From: Microscillaceae bacterium
GTDB taxonomy: Bacteria; Bacteroidota; Bacteroidia; Cytophagales; Microscillaceae
Direction: 5' to 3'
DNA: 49,016 nt
Assembly: GCA_003483885.1 (NCBI GenBank)
Contig: DMXI01000559.1
Coordinates: forward strand, 1-49,016
Shown here: in pieces, positions 12,611-38,237 of the stretch
Position numbering within the stretch: position 1 is the stretch's first letter
Layout: the number at the start of each line of letters is the position of its first letter
Translations under genes and position numbers: made by a program
Notes under the pieces: generated by a model
What the model was told of the DNA's origin: nothing
What the model saw: only the letters and a program-made list of their open reading frames with translations
Databases searched by the model: none

Positions 12611-13654
12611 ATGCAAAAGAAAACCGAGCAACAAAGAACTGAATTGAAGGATTTAGGTGAATTTGGGTTGATTCAACGCATTCAGCAGCAGTTCCCTACC
12701 AAGCATCCCGAGAGCGTGTTGGGCATTGGAGACGATGCGGCGGTGATAGATACTGGCACCGATCATTATACCTTGGTATCTACCGATATGTTGGTAGAGG
12801 GTATTCACTTTGATTTGAGCTATGTGCCCCTCAAACACCTGGGATACAAGGCCGTAGCTGCAAATGTGTCTGATATTGCTGCGATGAATGGCACACCCAA
12901 GCAGTTTACAGTAAGTTTGGGGCTGAGCAATCGCTTTCCACTGGAGGCCATAGATGAGCTATACGCAGGAATCAAACATGCTTGTAACAACTACAAAATA
13001 GATTTAATAGGAGGAGATACTACCTCGACTCGTGCAGGATTGGTGATTTCGATTACCGCCATAGGAGAAGTAAAAAAAGAGGAAATTGTATACCGTAAAG
13101 GTTGTAAAGAAAACGAGCTCATCTGTGTAAGTGGTGACCTGGGAGGTGCTTATATGGGCTTACAAGTACTTGAAAGAGAAAAGCAAGTATTTATGGCCAA
13201 TCCAGATATGCAGCCCGAGCTAGACGGCAAAGACTATATTGTACGTCGCCAGCTTAAACCTGAGGCTCGTACTGATATGATTTATGAATTAAGAGATTTG
13301 GGAGTCGTACCTACTTCTATGATAGATATTTCGGATGGCCTGGCTTCAGAGTTAATGCATATTTGTTCTCAATCTGGTGTAGGGGCTATTTTATACGAAG
13401 AGCACTTACCTATTGCCAAAGTCACTTATGATACTTCGGTAGAATTTAATATTGATCCTACTACTTCGATATTGAATGGTGGAGAAGATTATGAACTCCT
13501 CTTTACGGTGAAACAAGAAGATTATGACAAGATTAAGAAAAACGCCGAAATCATCGAGATAGGCTATGTACTGCCTAAAGAGAAAGGAGTAGTTCTGAAA
13601 ACCAAAGGGGAACAAATTGTGCCGATTACTGCTCAAGGTTGGAAACATTTCTAG
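12611..13654 (+). CDS. thiL: Thiamine-monophosphate kinase
   Basis: 347 aa; AIR-synthase-related fold with GEFGLIQRI and GIGDDAAVID N-terminal motifs and DISDGL C-terminal motif characteristic of ThiL. Confidence 0.8.
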   Translation: MQKKTEQQRTELKDLGEFGLIQRIQQQFPTKHPESVLGIGDDAAVIDTGTDHYTLVSTDMLVEGIHFDLSYVPLKHLGYKAVAANVSDIAAMNGTPKQFTVSLGLSNRFPLEAIDELYAGIKHACNNYKIDLIGGDTTSTRAGLVISITAIGEVKKEEIVYRKGCKENELICVSGDLGGAYMGLQVLEREKQVFMANPDMQPELDGKDYIVRRQLKPEARTDMIYELRDLGVVPTSMIDISDGLASELMHICSQSGVGAILYEEHLPIAKVTYDTSVEFNIDPTTSILNGGEDYELLFTVKQEDYDKIKKNAEIIEIGYVLPKEKGVVLKTKGEQIVPITAQGWKHF

Positions 13655-13751
13655 CATTAATCAAATGTTAAATTAATGTAACCCAAGTATTAAATCGACG
13701 TAAACTATCATGAGAATCATGTAGCATTCTCATTTCATTAAAAGTTTTAAT

Positions 13752-13790
13752 AAGCCAGACTAGTGTTTTTGATGCTAGCCTGGCTTTTTT
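13752..13790 (+). terminator. Rho-independent terminator downstream of thiL
   Basis: agccagactag ... ctagcctggct 11-bp stem (1 mismatch) followed by tttttt. Confidence 0.6.
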
Positions 13791-14143
13791 AATTTTTTGT
13801 ATCGATTATATTGAAAATCAGCACTTTATTCAGTTTACTTAACGTATTATTTCATTGGATATGTTGTGCAAATAAATATTTGATTGGAGACATCAACCAA
13901 CTAGCTTCCCACCCAACACAAAAACATAAATAAATATCAGAAATGATTTTGGTCTCTCGTAAAGGAATGATGAATAAAAGCATTACTTAGTTTGATCACA
14001 GGAGATAACAGTAATGCTTTCTTTTGCTTAATAAATTAATGAGGGAAATCATTATTTTCAAAATGTTATCGCTGACCACTTATATAAAAATGACTTCACT
14101 TATTTTGATAATCATTGACCACAAACTTTCCTCTGGGGTAGAC

Positions 14144-14347
14144 TTAAAGATTATGGCGATCACTTCCGCCATCACAACCACAGCTACCAGAGCTAGTTGA
14201 CCCGCTTGATCTGCCTGTATTGCGGGAATTATCCCGGACTTGATCTTTTCTACTTGGTGAACCATCTCGCTCAGTCTCACCACCTTTTATATTTACTTGC
14301 TGTTGGTGGGTCAATTGTTGCATTCTAAAATTACTGAAGCTTTTCAT
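14144..14347 (-). CDS. Small peptide with double-glycine (GG) leader; candidate bacteriocin/RiPP precursor
   Basis: 67 aa MKSFSNFRMQQLTHQQQVNIKGG|ETERDG...SSGSTSSGSCGCDGGSDRHNL: Bacteroidota-style leader ending NIKGG, Ser/Gly/Arg-rich core with CGC; isolated in 935-bp intergenic gap; possible terminator hairpin aaagcattact/agtaatgcttt at 13977-14020 downstream on minus strand. Confidence 0.45.
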   Translation of the reverse strand: MKSFSNFRMQQLTHQQQVNIKGGETERDGSPSRKDQVRDNSRNTGRSSGSTSSGSCGCDGGSDRHNL

Positions 14348-14589
14348 TTTTTGTTGTGTTTAATTAAAAATGTACTTGCATACCAAAGCTTGTCTTCATT
14401 GACATAATTACTATGAGCAAACTAACTGTACAAGCTTGATTTGCGACCAAATAAATATGATGCAAAGGAAAAAGATAAGTAGCCTAATCACTTGGACATA
14501 TCTTTCAAAAAACGGGTTAAATCAGTCAAATGAGGGTACACTTGTAATCTGTTGACCACAATAAGAAAAGAAAAGGAGGTAACAGTTAC

Positions 14590-15582
14590 TTAAATGCTTC
14601 GAATAGCACTTGGAGTGATGCCGTATTTTTTCTTAAAAGCATTGGTAAAATGACCAGGGTGACTATAGCCTAATAGGTGGGCAATTTCGGAGGTAGGTTT
14701 ATCGGTTTCACGCAGTAGGTTACGCGCTTTTTCCATTTTAAAATCCAGCAAAAAGCCAAAAATCGTATTGTTGAATACTTCTTTAAAGCCCTTCTTGAGC
14801 TTGAAATCATTGGTACCCACCATTTTGGCCAATTCATAAATGGTAGGTGGATTGTCGGCACGAGCTACCAAAATTTCTTTAGCCTCGTGGATTTTATTCA
14901 AGTCCTTGGTATTATTGATAAAAGATTTAGCCTTGATTACAGGCGTATTTTGGGCTTGTTCTACTTGCAATGCCAGTAATTCTAACACTTTGGCTTCTAT
15001 AAAAATACGCTGTAGATTTCTATCCAGTGGTTGATTAAGCAATTCATGAATAATCAGGCGCATTTCAGGAGTAATAGGAAGGTTGGTATCAGCTAACATG
15101 GCAGGCTCTCTGCGAACCACTTTTTCATAAAAATCGGCTAATAAATCGGGATAACGAACTGCCAACTGTTCAAAATAGTCTTTAGTAAAATGGACCTCAA
15201 AATTTTGATAGTTTTGTTTGCCCCGAAAATTAAAAACCCCACTTTTACTCGGTACATAACACAGGTTTTGTTGGTTTTCTTCCATCACCACCTCTTCTCC
15301 AAAATCATCCATCTTGCCCGAAACCGTTCCTTTGAGGTGAAAACTCATCTCTACCAAGTCTTCATCTGCTTTACCACGAATACGCAAGTCATCATTGAAC
15401 GAAAAACCACCACCCAACACAAAAATCCCATTGAGATTATACTGTTTGAAGTTGCCATTACCAAAACCAAAATCTAAAAAGCCGCCATCGCGATATACTT
15501 TGGGATCGGAAGCTGGGACAAGGGGTAAATCAAACTCGTGTAGAGTTTCGGGGACCTGATCAACATGCAAACTAAACTTCAT
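14590..15582 (-). CDS. AraC family transcriptional regulator
   Basis: 330 aa; C-terminal tandem HTH of AraC/XylS type (IYELAKMVGTNDFKLKKGFKEVF...IAHLLGYSHPGHFTNAFKKKYGITPS). Confidence 0.8.
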   Translation of the reverse strand: MKFSLHVDQVPETLHEFDLPLVPASDPKVYRDGGFLDFGFGNGNFKQYNLNGIFVLGGGFSFNDDLRIRGKADEDLVEMSFHLKGTVSGKMDDFGEEVVMEENQQNLCYVPSKSGVFNFRGKQNYQNFEVHFTKDYFEQLAVRYPDLLADFYEKVVRREPAMLADTNLPITPEMRLIIHELLNQPLDRNLQRIFIEAKVLELLALQVEQAQNTPVIKAKSFINNTKDLNKIHEAKEILVARADNPPTIYELAKMVGTNDFKLKKGFKEVFNNTIFGFLLDFKMEKARNLLRETDKPTSEIAHLLGYSHPGHFTNAFKKKYGITPSAIRSI

Positions 15583-16545: not shown

Positions 16546-16785
16546 CTAGAAACTCGTTTTGCGAGAAGGCGAAACTACATCATCGTGCCAACGATCTACT
16601 AGTAAATCGTCTATTTTGCCCCCAGGAGGTAAACTGATAATTGGAAAATCGTTTCCGCCGGGCATGCCTCCATCATCATCGTTATTGGGTGGATAATCGT
16701 TTCGTTTGATAATGGAACGAATCATTACCCAAGTAATTAATGAGAAACACACCAGACAAATCACAAAATATATCAGTACCGTCAT
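16546..16785 (-). CDS. Hypothetical small membrane protein (one TM, acidic Pro/Gly/Asp-rich tail)
   Basis: 79-aa ORF with N-terminal hydrophobic helix; no recognisable family; may be spurious. Confidence 0.3.
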   Translation of the reverse strand: MTVLIYFVICLVCFSLITWVMIRSIIKRNDYPPNNDDDGGMPGGNDFPIISLPPGGKIDDLLVDRWHDDVVSPSRKTSF

Positions 16786-19171: not shown

Positions 19172-22100
19172 ATGGCCGATAAAAAACTCTTTGCCTTGTG
19201 TGTAGGCATCAATGAATACCCAACAGGGGTAAGCAACCTGGCAGGTTGTATTGCTGACGCCGAAAACTGGAAAAACTTTTTGGAAACCCATTATCAAAAA
19301 ACGCTCTCCCCAGAAGTACTTCTATTGACCAACGGCCAAGCTACTCGTAAAGGCTTTATAGATGCTTTTCGCAATCACCTGGGTCAAGCTCGTGACGGAG
19401 ACACGGTTTTCTTTCACTACAGTGGTCATGGCTCTCGAGAAAAATCGCCCTCGGCTTACTTAAAGTTTTTCCCCGATGGAATGAATGAAACACTGGTATT
19501 GAGTGACAGTCGGGCTACTAACGAGGATGGTAATTATACAGGGCACGATTTGGCCGATAAAGAACTAGGAAAGCTTCTCGAGGAAGTCATTATAGATAAA
19601 CCGAACTTAAACTTAATAGTATCGCTGGATTGCTGCCACGCTGGTTCAGGTACCCGAGATGTTTCTGGTCTGGCAAATCCACGCCTTACTGGCGATCGCA
19701 CTGACGATGCTCGTTCGTTTGAAACCTACCTCCCTGGTATTTTTACAGGGGCAGAAGTAACCCCTCCCTCTAGTAAACATGTATTGTTGGCTTCTTGCTC
19801 TAAATACCAAAAGGCTTGGGAAACCAAAGAACACACGGGGCTTTTTACTACTTCGGCACTAGAGATACTTGATAAATATGGTACCCAAACTACTTTTGCC
19901 GATTTATACACCCGCACCCGCACATTGATGCGAAAAACCACCAATATTCAAGACCCTCAATTAGAAGTACACGAAAAATACAATGCCAACCAAGTTATTT
20001 TCACGGGTGGAACTTTAGAAGGGGCAGGTCAATACACTCGAAGAATTTACCAAGTAGATAATGTTTGGAAGTTAGATTTTGGGGCCATTCATGGTATGCC
20101 CAATGATAAAACTATAGAGCTAGCTGTATATGAGAGTGCAGATGATTTAAATCAGCAAAAATCTCTGGGCAATGCTAAATCCGTAGACGTAACCGGACAC
20201 AAAACTACCCTTGAGCTTGATTTTGAAGCCGATGCTAATCAAGAATACATTGGGGAGTTTCTCGCGCCACCTACACCTCCCCTTAACGTGTTTATTTATG
20301 GTGCCCAAGAAGGTCAAGAGTTTCTCCAAAAAACGTTTGAAAAACACCCCAGTCTGAATTTTACCTTAACCACCATGGATGATCAGGATGGTTATACTTT
20401 TGATGCAAAATACATCGAGCAAGACAACCCTCACCCCTATTTTGGTGAAGTCAAGATCATCGATAAACAAGGGCAATTAATCACTCCTAAGGCAGGAGAT
20501 TACAACCTTGTGGCTTACTTTGATGGCTACTTCTTATTGGACGAAAATAATCGCCTGATTAAAGGTTGTAAAAGTGGTTATGATGATGATCAAGCCATTA
20601 TCATATTATTCCAACTTCTGGACAAAATCGCCAATTGGGAAAATCTAACGGTCCTTCAAAATAAAGCACCTAAACTGAATCCTGACGATGTAGAGTTCAG
20701 CCTATATGCAGGAGAGAATCAAGAACAAATCGCAGGAACAGAATTCACCGCTTCTTTGGTGGAAGTAGATGATCCTGATGTACCTTGGCCAAGCATTCCT
20801 TTTGAGTTACGATTCAAAAATAACACGAAGCAAGGTCTACACATTTCATTGATATATCTGGATGATCATTATACAGTAATCCCTCTTTATAATGACTACA
20901 TAGAGTCTAAAACTGGCGAAACTACGCTGATAAGCGATGGGTTGCAGATATTAAGTAACAATAGAGACGAAAGTGGTAGGGCATATGATGAAGTGTTAGA
21001 TGAATATCGTTTTAATCAAAGTACAATGATCTTTAAGTTACTAGTCAGTACTGAGCGTCTGGATGACTTTACATTGGAACAAGCCGGCTTTGATATAGGT
21101 CATATTTCTTATAACAGAATACTGGCTTCAAGGGTGAAAGGTGGCATTACAAAACCTGTAAAAAACGATTGGTTTACCAAAACAATCCGAACATACACGA
21201 TACGTCAACGCTCCAAACTAAGCAAAAACGACTTAGCGTTAGGAGAAACCAAACAATTGACCATCAAAGGTCAGGAACAAGTAGCAGCCAATGTAAAGCT
21301 GAGTAGCAGCAATTCTGGCAGTCGCAGCGCTGACAAAACTTCTCTCATGATGAGTTTGCTCGAACAACAGGATGGAAACCTGATCAATTTTGATGGAGCA
21401 GTGGGTGGTACTAATGTATTAGAAATCAACGATGTTCAAGGCGATGAAAAACTCGCAGAAACCCCATTGGAACTCACCCTCAAAGAGGCGGTCTCAGATG
21501 ATGAGTTGCTCCTGCCCCTTACTTTTGACGGAGAACACATCTTTTCGATTGGTGAAACCCAAAGCCTGGAAAATGGCCATACCAACATTGCCATTGATGA
21601 AATACCGGTCGTAGAAGAAGGAAGCCGTAGTTTAGGCAAATCGCTCAAGTTGGCCTTTTTTAAAATCGCCCTCAAGCGCCACCCCGAAAAGATTTATCAA
21701 TTGGCTTGGGTAGAATATTTGAATAGCCAAGATAAAAAGAGCAAGGGAATTATCCAGCGCCATCGGGATAATGACGAAATAGCCAAAAAGGTAGCCAATG
21801 CTACGAAGATCTTGCTGTTGTTGCATGGCATCATTGGTGATACCGAAGATATGGCCATTGCTGTAAAAGAAATTGCGGCCGAAAAGGGGTATGATTTGGT
21901 GCTGAGCTTTGACTACGAAAACCTCAACTCTTCTATAGAAAAAGACATTTCCTGGTCATTGAAAAATCAACTCGAGCAGGTGGGCTTCAAAGCCGATGAC
22001 AGTAAGGAATTGCATATTTTAGCCCAAGGAATGGGCTGTTTAGTAGCTCGCTGGATGGTAGAACGCCGAGGAGGCAACCAATTGGTAGATCGGATGATTT

Positions 22101-22600
22101 TAGTTGGGCCTCCTAGTGGTGGATCGGTATTGGGTACTCTGGAGGCTTATCGCAAATTGGCCACTACAGCGCTCAGTATTGCCGTCAATGTATTGTTGCC
22201 CTTTGCGGGTTGGGCTGGTGGTTTACTCAAAAACATAAAAACCGCCCTTAAACAAGGACAGAAGCTTACCACTACGTTGGCCGAAATGCACGAAAACTCT
22301 ACTTTTATCCGGGATTTGAACGACAGCGATGACCCAGGAGTGCCTTATGCCATTGTAGCAGGAGATGTACGTACATATGAACCAAGTGATGGTAGCAGTT
22401 TCTCTAAGTTTAGAGAAAAGCTTTCCACCAAATTGGGCACTTTTGTAAATGGAGGCGATGCCAATGACATGATTGTGGACTACGCCTCGATGAAACAAGC
22501 GGGAAAAAATAGCCAAGTGGAGATTACGAAGGTGGTTTGTCATCATTTAAACTACTTTCAGGAAGAAGTGAGCCTGGAGACCATCAAAAACCTTTTGTAG
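19172..22600 (+). CDS. Caspase-domain (peptidase C14, orthocaspase-like) protein fused to C-terminal alpha/beta-hydrolase-like domain; ~500-aa uncharacterised middle region
   Basis: 1142 aa; N-terminal ~280 aa with caspase catalytic dyad His (FHYSGHGS) and Cys (DCCHAGSG); C-terminal ~300 aa with alpha/beta hydrolase landmarks LLLHGIIGDTEDM, nucleophile-elbow-like AQGMGCLVARW (Ser position occupied by Gly), VGPPSGGSVLG. Confidence 0.85.
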   Translation: MADKKLFALCVGINEYPTGVSNLAGCIADAENWKNFLETHYQKTLSPEVLLLTNGQATRKGFIDAFRNHLGQARDGDTVFFHYSGHGSREKSPSAYLKFFPDGMNETLVLSDSRATNEDGNYTGHDLADKELGKLLEEVIIDKPNLNLIVSLDCCHAGSGTRDVSGLANPRLTGDRTDDARSFETYLPGIFTGAEVTPPSSKHVLLASCSKYQKAWETKEHTGLFTTSALEILDKYGTQTTFADLYTRTRTLMRKTTNIQDPQLEVHEKYNANQVIFTGGTLEGAGQYTRRIYQVDNVWKLDFGAIHGMPNDKTIELAVYESADDLNQQKSLGNAKSVDVTGHKTTLELDFEADANQEYIGEFLAPPTPPLNVFIYGAQEGQEFLQKTFEKHPSLNFTLTTMDDQDGYTFDAKYIEQDNPHPYFGEVKIIDKQGQLITPKAGDYNLVAYFDGYFLLDENNRLIKGCKSGYDDDQAIIILFQLLDKIANWENLTVLQNKAPKLNPDDVEFSLYAGENQEQIAGTEFTASLVEVDDPDVPWPSIPFELRFKNNTKQGLHISLIYLDDHYTVIPLYNDYIESKTGETTLISDGLQILSNNRDESGRAYDEVLDEYRFNQSTMIFKLLVSTERLDDFTLEQAGFDIGHISYNRILASRVKGGITKPVKNDWFTKTIRTYTIRQRSKLSKNDLALGETKQLTIKGQEQVAANVKLSSSNSGSRSADKTSLMMSLLEQQDGNLINFDGAVGGTNVLEINDVQGDEKLAETPLELTLKEAVSDDELLLPLTFDGEHIFSIGETQSLENGHTNIAIDEIPVVEEGSRSLGKSLKLAFFKIALKRHPEKIYQLAWVEYLNSQDKKSKGIIQRHRDNDEIAKKVANATKILLLLHGIIGDTEDMAIAVKEIAAEKGYDLVLSFDYENLNSSIEKDISWSLKNQLEQVGFKADDSKELHILAQGMGCLVARWMVERRGGNQLVDRMILVGPPSGGSVLGTLEAYRKLATTALSIAVNVLLPFAGWAGGLLKNIKTALKQGQKLTTTLAEMHENSTFIRDLNDSDDPGVPYAIVAGDVRTYEPSDGSSFSKFREKLSTKLGTFVNGGDANDMIVDYASMKQAGKNSQVEITKVVCHHLNYFQEEVSLETIKNLL

Positions 22601-35678: not shown

Positions 35679-38237
35679 TTAATCTTCGTCTTCCTCATCC
35701 ACTACATCATCTTCCATTCCATTGAGGCTAGACTCTAGCACATTGGCCAGCTTGGTCCCTTTAAGCATATTGGTAAACACCTGGGCTACACTCTTGCCTC
35801 CCAAAATAGCCAACGGTGACATCGATTTGGCCATTTTTTCAGCCAATGATTTATCAGCAAAAGCTTGCAAGGCTGCAATCAAATTGGGCGACACCGCTTC
35901 GGCTTTGTTTACTACTGCCTGTACCTCAGCTCGAAGTAGCTCAAGCTCTTGATGCAATTCTTTTTGGGCAATTTCCAGTACCAACTCCTCTTCTTTTTGC
36001 TTACGAGCCAGTTCGGCATCTTTGATCTGAGTCAATGAATCTTGTTCAGCTAAATTGGCCTCCAGCTGACGTTGCTTAGACTGTATCTCCATGTCTAGTT
36101 TTGCCAAAATAACCTCAAGCTCCTTTTTAGATTCTTTCTTTTCCAAATCAAATTGCTTTTGGGTAGTATCAGACTTGGTACTGGCAATCTGTTGGTTAAT
36201 TTCTTCGCTTTGTTGGGTAAACTCTAATTTACGTTTTTCAGCATCTATGCGCAGGGTTTGCTTAACAACCTCTTGTTGGGCCGAAATGAGTAAGTTTTCA
36301 ATACTGACATCACTCAAACGAATGTCCAGCACCTCGATGTCATAAATACGCATGTTGTTTTCTTCAAACACTCGCCCAGGACGCTTATTGTTTTCTCCAG
36401 CTTGGCCCAAGATACTGTTGCGTAAAATATCGATACCATTGGCATAAAAATCCATAATGGTGTGTTTCTTTACCACATTGCGAATAAACGAACGCATATG
36501 GTCAGTCAAAAACTTGACATAGTTCTCTACATTGAACCATTTGTCCGATTCTTCTTCAAAATTGACCCGGTAAGAAATGGTAATGCTTACTTGGGTAAAG
36601 TCAGAAGATTCGGCTTTGACAATATCAGATATTTTGTTGTGCAATACCCGTAAATACACCGTGGTAATGGTGTTATCAGAGGTTTTGGGTGTTCCGGTAG
36701 AAAGCGTGATGGGCTCCAGGCTTTCGTCATACTCTAGTAAATAAGTCTGAGGGCCAGCAATGACTTTGCGTTGCCCAGTTTTGCTTACCACTAAAATAGC
36801 ATATCCAGTCCAAAGGTTAATGGTTACAGCGCCATCGTATTTGGTATCTAGAGTGATGGTACGAGGTGGGGTAAAAGTTTGCTCCCGGGTAAATTCATCT
36901 CCCGCCATTTCTTTCGATACCTTTTCTTTCTTTTTACGACGAGGGGCTGGCATAGGAATTTCATCAGCCAGTTCTTCAGCTTCCATCGCGGCGGCGGCTG
37001 GCTCTGCCGATATTTCCAGGTACCCTTCGTTAGACTTACGTCGGTCCAGCTCTTGTTTAAGTTGGCGGTTGTATTCCAAAGCTTCGCTATTGCCCGGAAA
37101 CCACAGCTTTACTTGCTTGGGGTCTAGGACCCGTTTTACAAACACCGCCTCGCGAGGGTCAGGCAAAAACATCACGGGGCCTTTTTTGAGTGATACTTTT
37201 CCGGTTTTTCGGTTGAGGTAATAACGCCCCTCTCCTGCCGGGATGGCAATGGCGTAGTGTCGCTCTTTTTGCCCATACTTGATAATGGCATGCTCAGGAC
37301 GAGGGTAATAAATCATTTGTTCATTACCAGTTACAAACAACTCCTCCCCTTCTTTGAAAGAAGTACCATTCTCCTCATAAGGAGCAATTACTTTGATGTA
37401 CAACCCACTCATCTCGTTGAGTTCAATGGCTCGAAACTTACGCGACCCATTACGGTATACAAATTCTTCGGTAGGCTCTGGGAAAACTACCGCGGGGCCT
37501 TGAATGTAACGCTTATTGCCATCTTCATCCAATAAAATACAATACTCTAAACGCTCCAAAGTGACCGCTTCTCGCACGTAGTTTCCATTCACCCCTCGTA
37601 CTACTTCTATCCCAGTAGGAGGAATATAAAAAGAAACCGCATCCCCTTTGATGATAAGCATCTTACCCATGGTCAAATCGGGCATTTCTTCCAGGTTTGT
37701 CAAATCGGTATCAGAACCCTCCCCTCCTTCTTTATCTTCCTCCCCATCTTTTGCCTCAGTAGAATTCTTGGTTTTAATCACCGCCTTGGTCCAGTTTTGT
37801 CGAGCTTCTTCTTCGTCGTATACCCTTACAGCCAAGTACTGATTGGAGCGTAAATTATGCCCACGCAATACTTTAACCATTTGTCCAGGCCAAAGCGCAA
37901 AATTGATAGGCCCTGGAATGTTAACTTTACGTCCTACATTCAATGCAGTAAGGTTATTTACGGTACCATTCTGAGGTTGGGTACCATCCTGAGACGGGTT
38001 TTTCATGACTACATACCAACCTTCGGGAGCAGTAGTAAAGGTTTGAAGAGAATTGTCCAGGTTAGAACGTTCGAATTTTTTAGTATCGGCATCAAAAATC
38101 ACCGGTTTATCGGTGTTGGCCAAACTGGTTTTATAAGGGCCTACATATACGTTGATGTTTCCCTTGGTTTGGTCAGATATAAAAGCAAATTCATTGGGAG
38201 CGAGCACCAAATCGCGCTCTCGGTTTGAGTCTGACAT
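35679..38237 (-). CDS. Major vault protein (MVP) homolog
   Basis: 852 aa; N-terminal ~470 aa of consecutive ~55-aa beta-rich MVP-type repeats, shoulder/SPFH-like segment (VSITISYRVNFEEESDKWFNVENYVKFLTDHMRSFIRNVV collinear with vertebrate MVP shoulder), ~170-aa heptad coiled-coil (cap-helix) and C-terminal segment EAVSPNLIAALQAFADKSLAEKMAKSMSPLAILGG collinear with MVP [36 protein letters not shown]. Confidence 0.8.
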   Translation of the reverse strand: MSDSNRERDLVLAPNEFAFISDQTKGNINVYVGPYKTSLANTDKPVIFDADTKKFERSNLDNSLQTFTTAPEGWYVVMKNPSQDGTQPQNGTVNNLTALNVGRKVNIPGPINFALWPGQMVKVLRGHNLRSNQYLAVRVYDEEEARQNWTKAVIKTKNSTEAKDGEEDKEGGEGSDTDLTNLEEMPDLTMGKMLIIKGDAVSFYIPPTGIEVVRGVNGNYVREAVTLERLEYCILLDEDGNKRYIQGPAVVFPEPTEEFVYRNGSRKFRAIELNEMSGLYIKVIAPYEENGTSFKEGEELFVTGNEQMIYYPRPEHAIIKYGQKERHYAIAIPAGEGRYYLNRKTGKVSLKKGPVMFLPDPREAVFVKRVLDPKQVKLWFPGNSEALEYNRQLKQELDRRKSNEGYLEISAEPAAAAMEAEELADEIPMPAPRRKKKEKVSKEMAGDEFTREQTFTPPRTITLDTKYDGAVTINLWTGYAILVVSKTGQRKVIAGPQTYLLEYDESLEPITLSTGTPKTSDNTITTVYLRVLHNKISDIVKAESSDFTQVSITISYRVNFEEESDKWFNVENYVKFLTDHMRSFIRNVVKKHTIMDFYANGIDILRNSILGQAGENNKRPGRVFEENNMRIYDIEVLDIRLSDVSIENLLISAQQEVVKQTLRIDAEKRKLEFTQQSEEINQQIASTKSDTTQKQFDLEKKESKKELEVILAKLDMEIQSKQRQLEANLAEQDSLTQIKDAELARKQKEEELVLEIAQKELHQELELLRAEVQAVVNKAEAVSPNLIAALQAFADKSLAEKMAKSMSPLAILGGKSVAQVFTNMLKGTKLANVLESSLNGMEDDVVDEEDED

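Follow-up and report, generated by a model that had tools for sequence, protein, structure and literature searches.

Within Bacteroidota, the export of double-glycine (GG)-leader peptide toxins via C39 transporters has been experimentally established (PMC6671954). The set of residues through which GG leaders are recognized has likewise been defined experimentally as Leu(-12), Glu(-8), Leu(-7), and Val(-4), and in the LahT150 co-crystal structure the -7 position is a hydrophobic "knob" (PMC6363468). The bacteroidetocins carry a charge of +2 to +6 (PMC6671954), and the phylum is also rich in GG-leader class I lanthipeptides (PMC7268733). Here, we describe pep1, a small open reading frame (ORF) on the minus strand of a 49,016-nucleotide contig of a Microscillaceae bacterium (DMXI01000559.1, assembly GCA_003483885.1), the whole of which is referred to below as the window. 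pep1 is a genuine protein-coding gene under purifying selection. Its sequence suggests a young, lineage-restricted 67-aa precursor whose 23-residue N-terminus is a divergent GG-type export leader, a proposal that we regard as evenly poised between right and wrong. The locus is composed as follows:

14144..14347, minus strand: pep1, an ORF of 67 codons plus stop with an ATG start and two orthologues (P0002, P0003)
14279..14347, minus strand: putative double-glycine-type leader, residues 1-23, ending in IKGG
14144..14278, minus strand: putative core, residues 24-67, delimited by protein alignment
14590..15582, minus strand: AraC-family regulator (Pfam HTH_18/HTH_AraC), upstream of pep1 and in the same orientation
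12611..13654, plus strand: thiL (AIRS domain), convergent with pep1 and the other boundary of a variable gap

The initial annotation of this stretch had placed a 67-aa minus-strand ORF at 14144-14347, between thiL and an AraC-family gene in a long AT-rich gap. The ORF is present and its quoted sequence matches, both neighbors are borne out by the ORF listing and Pfam, and the gap (13655-14589) measures 935 bp with 33% GC, against 39.6% for the window. According to the ORF listing, the product reads MKSFSNFRMQQLTHQQQVNIKGG, then ETERDGSPS, and ends in CGCDGGSDRHNL. Near-identical or identical copies of the locus are present in coral-metagenome assemblies.

Coding status of pep1

A word-index search of 5.8 billion proteins returned pep1 itself and two orthologues, and nothing else. 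The first, from marine bacterium AO1-C (Cytophagales), is 68 aa long and 77% identical to pep1; the second, from coral and other metagenomes, has 69 aa and 74% identity. A profile search of 1.84 billion representative proteins recovered the same pep1 cluster and no further relative, AO1-C was the sole match when GTDB genomes were scanned with pep1, and a metagenome scan with pep1 gave zero matches. The literature on "marine bacterium AO1-C" held nothing bearing on this locus. The pep1 peptide family is new, and it is confined to one shallow Microscillaceae clade (three closely related marine genomes), in all of which the gene lies 3' of the AraC gene and convergent with thiL.

In DNA alignments the ORF is sharply conserved amid largely unalignable upstream sequence. 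The indels that separate the orthologues measure 3 and 6 nt and keep the frame, the start codon is kept in an A-rich upstream context, and nucleotide changes are concentrated at third codon positions. The ratio of nonsynonymous to synonymous substitution rates (dN/dS, Nei-Gojobori) is 0.15-0.26 overall, 0.06-0.14 for residues 1-32, and 0.17-0.44 from residue 33 to the end. The corresponding ratio of proportions (pN/pS) is 0.28-0.34 in the pep1 frame (Fisher p from 3.6e-4 to 8.9e-9) and 0.87-1.57, i.e., near neutral, in frames +1 and +2. The initial annotation had proposed frame conservation and synonymous substitution patterns in relatives as a check, and the outcome is purifying selection in this frame only; these selection statistics rest on three orthologues. 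A second assembly of the same species differs from the window at three positions in the ORF, every one a third codon position, and over the whole gap at about 23 positions plus an 8-nt indel. An overlapping 67-aa ORF (14080-14283, minus strand) was considered as the selected frame and rejected, its pN/pS being neutral and its ends variable. For a feature that did not arise by chance, this conservation is stronger evidence than the leader pattern discussed below.

The sequence downstream of the stop codon is also structured, and two features are found there:

13977..14020, minus strand: intrinsic-terminator-like hairpin and U-tract, 124 nt past the pep1 stop codon
14068..14124, minus strand: conserved block of the 3' untranslated region (UTR), with two GTGGTCA(A/G)nGAT repeats, 43 nt apart

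The hairpin has perfectly complementary 11-nt arms (-15 kcal/mol, z = -4.06), is followed by UUUUAUU, and is kept in both orthologous loci with one compensatory change of an A-U to a G-C pair. The candidate terminator of the initial annotation is therefore upheld by fold, U-tract, and conservation; a terminator scan missed it because its loop exceeds 8 nt. The 3'-UTR block is conserved in AO1-C and in the coral relative (loci L001 and L002, respectively) and belongs to no Rfam family. A search for the GTGGTCA(A/G)nGAT pattern gave 4 matches vs. 0.67 expected. An extra copy of the TTGTGGTCAA repeat lies just past the AraC stop codon (14552-14561); taken alone, a 10-nt exact repeat could be due to chance. 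As for a promoter, a sigma-70 scan found sites no more common than in shuffled sequence, and no convincing Bacteroidota -33/-7 promoter was seen by eye.

The AT-rich surroundings, the conserved blocks and hairpin in the 3' UTR, and the apparent lack of a call for this ORF in the NCBI record of the metagenome-assembled genome (P0001 comes from JGI and ENA only) might be taken to mean that the ORF is spurious and that what is conserved here is a non-coding element, either RNA or DNA. Such an explanation is very improbable. It is opposed by purifying selection that is restricted to frame 0, by the excess of third-position changes and indels in multiples of three, by the conserved start codon with its A-rich upstream context, and by the lack of any matching Rfam family in a search of 13400-14800 at E <= 1.

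Leader and core of the predicted precursor

The initial annotation had read the N-terminus as a GG-type leader, and part of this reading stands. GG-leader substrates are expected to carry Gly-Gly (or GA/GS) 15-30 residues from the start, and IKGG occupies residues 20-23, with the GG invariant in all three orthologues. Also retained in the alignment are M/I(-15), L(-12), T(-11), and I/V(-4), which in the window are M, L, T, and I, respectively. Residues 1-32 are the most constrained part of pep1. A strict pattern (hydrophobic residues at -15, -12, and -4, S/T at -11, and GG) is found in 1 of the 564 ATG-started ORFs of the window, pep1 alone, and in 0.04% of ORFs in shuffled sequence, although this pattern was composed after the pep1 sequence had been seen. 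The AlphaFold2 (AF2) model has a sole helix at residues 7-14, within the leader, and otherwise consists of low-confidence coil (pLDDT, the predicted local distance difference test, 54.7). No Sec-type hydrophobic signal is visible in the pep1 sequence, and therefore any export would need a leader-dependent route. When the window leader was searched by itself, its best match was NF033383 (13.5 bits vs. a cutoff of 35, E = 0.07), while the leader of the coral orthologue matched NF038153 (15 bits vs. a cutoff of 22, E = 0.021); both matches are sub-threshold, and both stop exactly at the GG. The window leader itself did not match NF038153.

A number of observations weigh against this reading. Residues 16 and 17 (-8 and -7) are Gln in all three orthologues, not Glu and Leu, and every hidden Markov model (HMM) score stays below cutoff; on these two points the leader claim falls short. 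Full-length pep1 matched nothing in Pfam or NCBIfam even at E <= 10, and none of the curated GG-leader HMMs (TIGR01847, NF047798, and similar) reached its cutoff. A search with TIGR04149 (cutoff 25 bits) likewise gave no match for pep1 or for an orthologue. The nine residues that follow the GG are conserved like the leader, which is unusual at a cleavage boundary. The neutral, polar core is unlike those of known GG-exported bacteriocins. There is also little data behind the selection statistics, because there are three orthologues in all. Finally, the machinery is missing nearby. The domain evidence consists of direct scans of window ORFs and of the precomputed Pfam annotation of syntenic genes in relatives. 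Among window ORFs of at least 100 aa, no C39 peptidase, ABC (ATP-binding cassette) transporter, radical-SAM, LanB/C/M, or YcaO protein was found, and no transporter or modification enzyme occurs within 20 kb in the relatives. The orphan status originally noted for pep1, with no adjacent transporter, radical-SAM, or maturation gene, thus extends across the 49 kb window, where the absence of a C39/ABC transporter and of modification enzymes counts against export as well.

The putative core is, as described initially, a polar 44-residue segment that contains a CGC triad, and its net charge is 0 (7 acidic and 7 basic residues). Its two ends are invariant (ETERDGSPS at the start and CGCxGGSDRxN(L/F) at the end), and the Gly/Ser-rich middle is variable and carries the in-frame indels. 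The core contains 13 Ser/Thr residues and two Cys; S50, S53, C56, and C58 are invariant. Ser/Thr residues lie N-terminal to Cys (SSGSTSSGSCGC in the window), a compositional feature only. Class II bacteriocins are cationic and amphiphilic. A profile typical of class II bacteriocins, as the initial annotation had it, was not recovered in this neutral, very polar, Gly/Ser-rich core.

The AraC-thiL gap and its shared repeat element

The gap between the AraC and thiL genes is a variable hotspot of gene content, as is evident when the window is set beside its relatives (AraC identity to the window in brackets where available):

Window strain: pep1 only; the 311-aa gene found in relatives is cleanly absent, its place being 13655-13976
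AO1-C (L001) and the coral relative (L002): pep1 and the 311-aa gene
L015 (72%): no gene but one of 305 aa, whose product bears a signal peptide and matches no family
L011/L018 (83%): a gap of 1.39 kb with no recognisable gene
L013 (86%) and L008 (65%): gaps of 150 bp and 74 bp, with nothing between the genes

Two further gene families occupy the gap in relatives:

L001 9747-9953 and L016 9713-9943 and 10001-10195: pep2 family, with a canonical GG leader and four conserved Cys
L001 10569-11534, L002 10748-11683, L015 1238-2155, and L016 8615-9517: 305-311-aa gene, between the peptide genes and thiL

In AO1-C, the pep2 gene lies 48 bp upstream of pep1 and encodes a canonical GG leader (...KELQTIQGG) and a four-Cys core. 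Its product scored 15.6 bits against TIGR01847 (cutoff 15.7) and served as a positive control. The two tandem pep2-family copies of L016 adjoin thiL and score 17.9 and 12.6 bits with TIGR04149 (cutoff 25). The pep2 core, RCPxxLxPxGxCEKYWGDDxxGxRRCxxxC, is bacteroidetocin-like in outline, and the family was seen in these relatives only. Homology between pep1 and pep2 was considered and was not detectable (hhalign E = 0.42), the GG register alone being held in common. The 305-311-aa protein is basic, carries a signal peptide, and has no match in Pfam, NCBIfam, or PDB. As a maturation enzyme for pep1 it was rejected for the window genome, as its gene is absent there and in independent assemblies of the same strain; it also occurs without pep1 in L015.

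The pep1 gene is preceded by a conserved element:

14491..14523, minus strand: upstream element, a candidate operator/promoter module, 145 nt before the pep1 ATG

Its general form, GATATGnCCAAG - TTTTTGCA(A/C) - GATATGTCCAAG, is that of a direct repeat in two parts whose period is 21-22 bp. The window contains a single copy, with a degenerate first half: the repeat GATTTAACCCGT is followed by TTTTTGAAA and GATATGTCCAAG. This block is conserved, while the upstream DNA around it is otherwise unalignable. In L001 the element stands before pep2/pep1 and before the 311-aa gene, in L002 before pep1, and in L016 before both the homologue of the 311-aa gene and the pair of pep2 genes; in L011/L018 it follows AraC. 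It was not found in the AraC-LCM divergent intergenic region. A metagenome scan for TTTTTGMAMGATATGTCCAA gave 12 matches, of which one was related (L018, of the L011 type) and the rest were due to chance. Because the direct-repeat element is common to their upstream regions, we infer from sequence that the genes for pep1, for the 311-aa protein, and for the canonical GG-leader peptides are co-regulated. In Firmicutes, GG signaling and bacteriocin-induction genes sit behind direct repeats with a period of about 21 bp that are bound by LytTR regulators, and the present element may be likened to the direct repeats before Firmicute bacteriocin/pheromone operons.

The AraC protein is probably not the dedicated regulator of pep1, and its candidacy is not favored. 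AraC orthologues of 63-86% identity keep a divergent LCM methyltransferase partner and have no peptide gene downstream, and since AraC is conserved without the peptide its adjacency implies no regulatory link. Nor is AraC an obvious binding protein for the element, because the element is absent from the AraC-LCM region and AraC is kept without the island. Some distant AraC homologues bear the JGI label "AraC family transcriptional activator of pyochelin receptor" (PchR-like). The divergent LCM-type methyltransferase partner is joined by a SnoaL gene in some relatives.

On the thiL side, a stretch of about 135 bp by the thiL stop codon (13655-13800) is 79-93% identical across all relatives despite their differing gaps. 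A 24-nt inverted repeat inside it (13740-13763 / 13775-13798) is probably the thiL terminator. In L009 and L016, both from sample SRR24820228, AraC abuts MarR and OsmC genes, whose window equivalents lie at 26-27 kb, and the thiL side abuts an extracytoplasmic function (ECF)-sigma/outer-membrane protein (OMP) pair, whose window equivalent lies at 30-32 kb; this order indicates a rearrangement with a breakpoint at the AraC-thiL gap.

Elsewhere in the window, an 852-aa ORF (35679-38237, minus strand) matches Pfam MVP_shoulder (9e-31), Vault_3, and Band_7, and also occurs in L016. These domains mark it as a homologue, in bacteria, of the major vault protein of eukaryotes. A 1142-aa protein (19172-22600, plus strand) has syntenic orthologues with Peptidase_C14 (caspase-like) and DUF7379 domains and is found in all relatives examined. 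Between the rhomboid and LCM methyltransferase genes lies a 79-aa ORF (16546-16785, minus strand) with a hydrophobic N-terminus and an Asp/Pro/Gly-rich tail; all relatives examined, including those with AraC identity as low as 63%, have it called as a 79-aa gene, and it matches no family.

Explanations for pep1 and comparison with known systems

As an exported precursor, pep1 would be transcribed from its own regulated promoter region, which contains the shared direct-repeat element, and transcription would stop at the conserved hairpin. The short leader helix, with L-12, I-4, and GG, would be recognized by a peptidase-containing ABC transporter (PCAT) encoded elsewhere in the genome, and cleavage after Gly23 would release a Gly/Ser-rich peptide of 44 residues that is neutral and disordered. 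Function would reside in the invariant ETERDGSPS start and CGCxGGSDRxN(L/F) end of this mature peptide. The gene belongs to a small island of variable content beside thiL. We infer that the peptide is exported, and likewise its cleavage site, its regulator, and its activity. Indirect support for a GG leader comes from the location that pep1 shares with canonical GG peptides and from their common cis element. The composition of the core speaks against a classical membrane-active bacteriocin; the mature peptide would more plausibly serve as a signal, as an accessory peptide, or as a substrate that is modified by distal enzymes.

The lack of a GG-leader HMM match for full-length pep1, the non-canonical Gln at -7/-8, the absence of a transporter nearby, and the disordered AF2 model would all fit a different kind of product, namely a small disordered protein that stays in the cell uncleaved (a regulator, a binding partner, or a metal/redox CGC peptide) and in which IKGG is coincidental. 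The conservation that runs unbroken over the supposed cleavage site, where KGGETERDGSPS is invariant, would be expected of such a protein too. We consider this explanation unlikely, though not strikingly so: the leader pattern is rare by chance, pep1 is co-located with canonical GG-leader peptides and has a cis element in common with them, and a conserved N-terminus followed by a variable, indel-prone middle resembles a precursor peptide.

A core that is modified by distal enzymes (lanthionine or azol(in)e formation at S/G-C-G-C) and then exported in a GG-dependent manner would make pep1 a peptide that is made by ribosomes and modified post-translationally (RiPP), a possibility that overlaps with the export model and that appears distinctly unlikely. 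In its favor, the core has 13 Ser/Thr and an invariant CGC that follows Gly/Ser, and its Gly/Ser/Cys content may recall microcin B17. The leader of the coral orthologue weakly matches the lanthipeptide leader model NF038153, with the match ending at the GG, and the wealth of GG-leader class I lanthipeptides in Bacteroidota counts in favor as well (PMC7268733). However, LxLxKx5L, the leader motif that class I LanAs of Bacteroidetes carry (PMC7268733), is absent from pep1. The window leader also does not match NF038153, and neither the 49 kb window nor the 20 kb covered in the relatives contains a LanB/LanC/LanM, YcaO, or radical-SAM gene. RiPP precursors usually cluster with their enzymes, which also counts against modification of pep1. 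Something of a long shot is a broader proposal, in which pep1 would be the first member of an undescribed family: a GG-leader cargo of recent origin, whether de novo or by strong divergence, with a Gly/Ser/Cys core that distal enzymes mature into a new RiPP scaffold or that serves as a diffusible signal. Together with the canonical bacteriocin-like peptides and the secreted 311-aa protein, it would be controlled by a regulator that binds the direct repeat. If that proposal is true, the island would be for Bacteroidota what the peptide-pheromone/bacteriocin regulons are for Firmicutes.

Peptide competition and signaling are little studied in marine and coral-associated Cytophagales. If pep1 is exported, a non-canonical leader (Gln at -7/-8) and a neutral, disordered cargo would join the C39 substrates of Bacteroidota, and small peptide genes would appear to be gained and lost at one intergenic hotspot over short evolutionary distances. 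If the export model fails, pep1 would be one more taxonomically restricted small protein. Of the by-products, the most useful are the repeat element that these genes share and the pattern of gains and losses at one intergenic hotspot; the element in particular offers a handle on the regulator and the rest of its regulon, possibly including the transporter.

Several described groups resemble pep1 in part. Like the bacteroidetocins, it comes from Bacteroidota and is small; its leader ends in GG, it has at least two Cys, and its mature length falls in the same range of about 42-48 aa. On the other hand, bacteroidetocins have leaders of 15-16 aa, are cationic, and usually contain four Cys, compared with 23 aa, a charge of 0, and two Cys in pep1, and pep1 lacks neighbors such as those of the bacteroidetocin four-gene unit, which includes a PCAT, a transmembrane (TM) protein, and a thiol oxidoreductase (PMC6671954). 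The pep2 peptides of the sister genomes are closer to the bacteroidetocins than pep1 is. The radical-SAM-modified RiPP precursors of TIGR04149 (GG_sam_targ_CFB) share with pep1 the phylum, the GG end of the leader, and a small Cys-containing core, but pep1 has neither a match to that HMM nor a nearby radical-SAM/SPASM gene. The class I lanthipeptide precursors of Bacteroidota (NF038153 L1a leader; pinensin family) likewise end their leaders in GG and have a Ser/Thr-rich core with Cys, and one pep1 orthologue weakly matches NF038153 below its cutoff. Unlike these precursors, pep1 lacks both LxLxKx5L (PMC7268733) and LanB/LanC genes.

The GG signaling peptides and induction factors of Firmicutes (ComC and the EntF type, NF033383) are resembled through the weak NF033383 match (E = 0.07), the upstream direct repeat with a period of 21-22 bp, and a non-toxin-like core. 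However, they belong to another phylum, and no histidine kinase or response regulator is adjacent to pep1. The fullest set of likenesses is to PCAT/C39 substrates (TIGR01847-type): a short precursor with a leader of about 23 aa that ends in GG, hydrophobic residues at -4, -12, and -15 and T(-11), a predicted leader helix, no Sec signal, and a leader more conserved than the mid-core. The differences are Gln-Gln at -8/-7 in place of Glu-Leu, scores below every HMM cutoff, no transporter near pep1, and invariant residues directly after the GG. Because the HMM cutoffs and the hydrophobic -7 position failed, pep1 should not be filed as a confirmed PCAT substrate. GG-leader peptides are a familiar kind of element, and pep1 shows nothing at odds with what is ordinarily expected of small accessory peptide genes. 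Of the systems compared, and with its membership unconfirmed, pep1 appears from its sequence to work most like a PCAT substrate.

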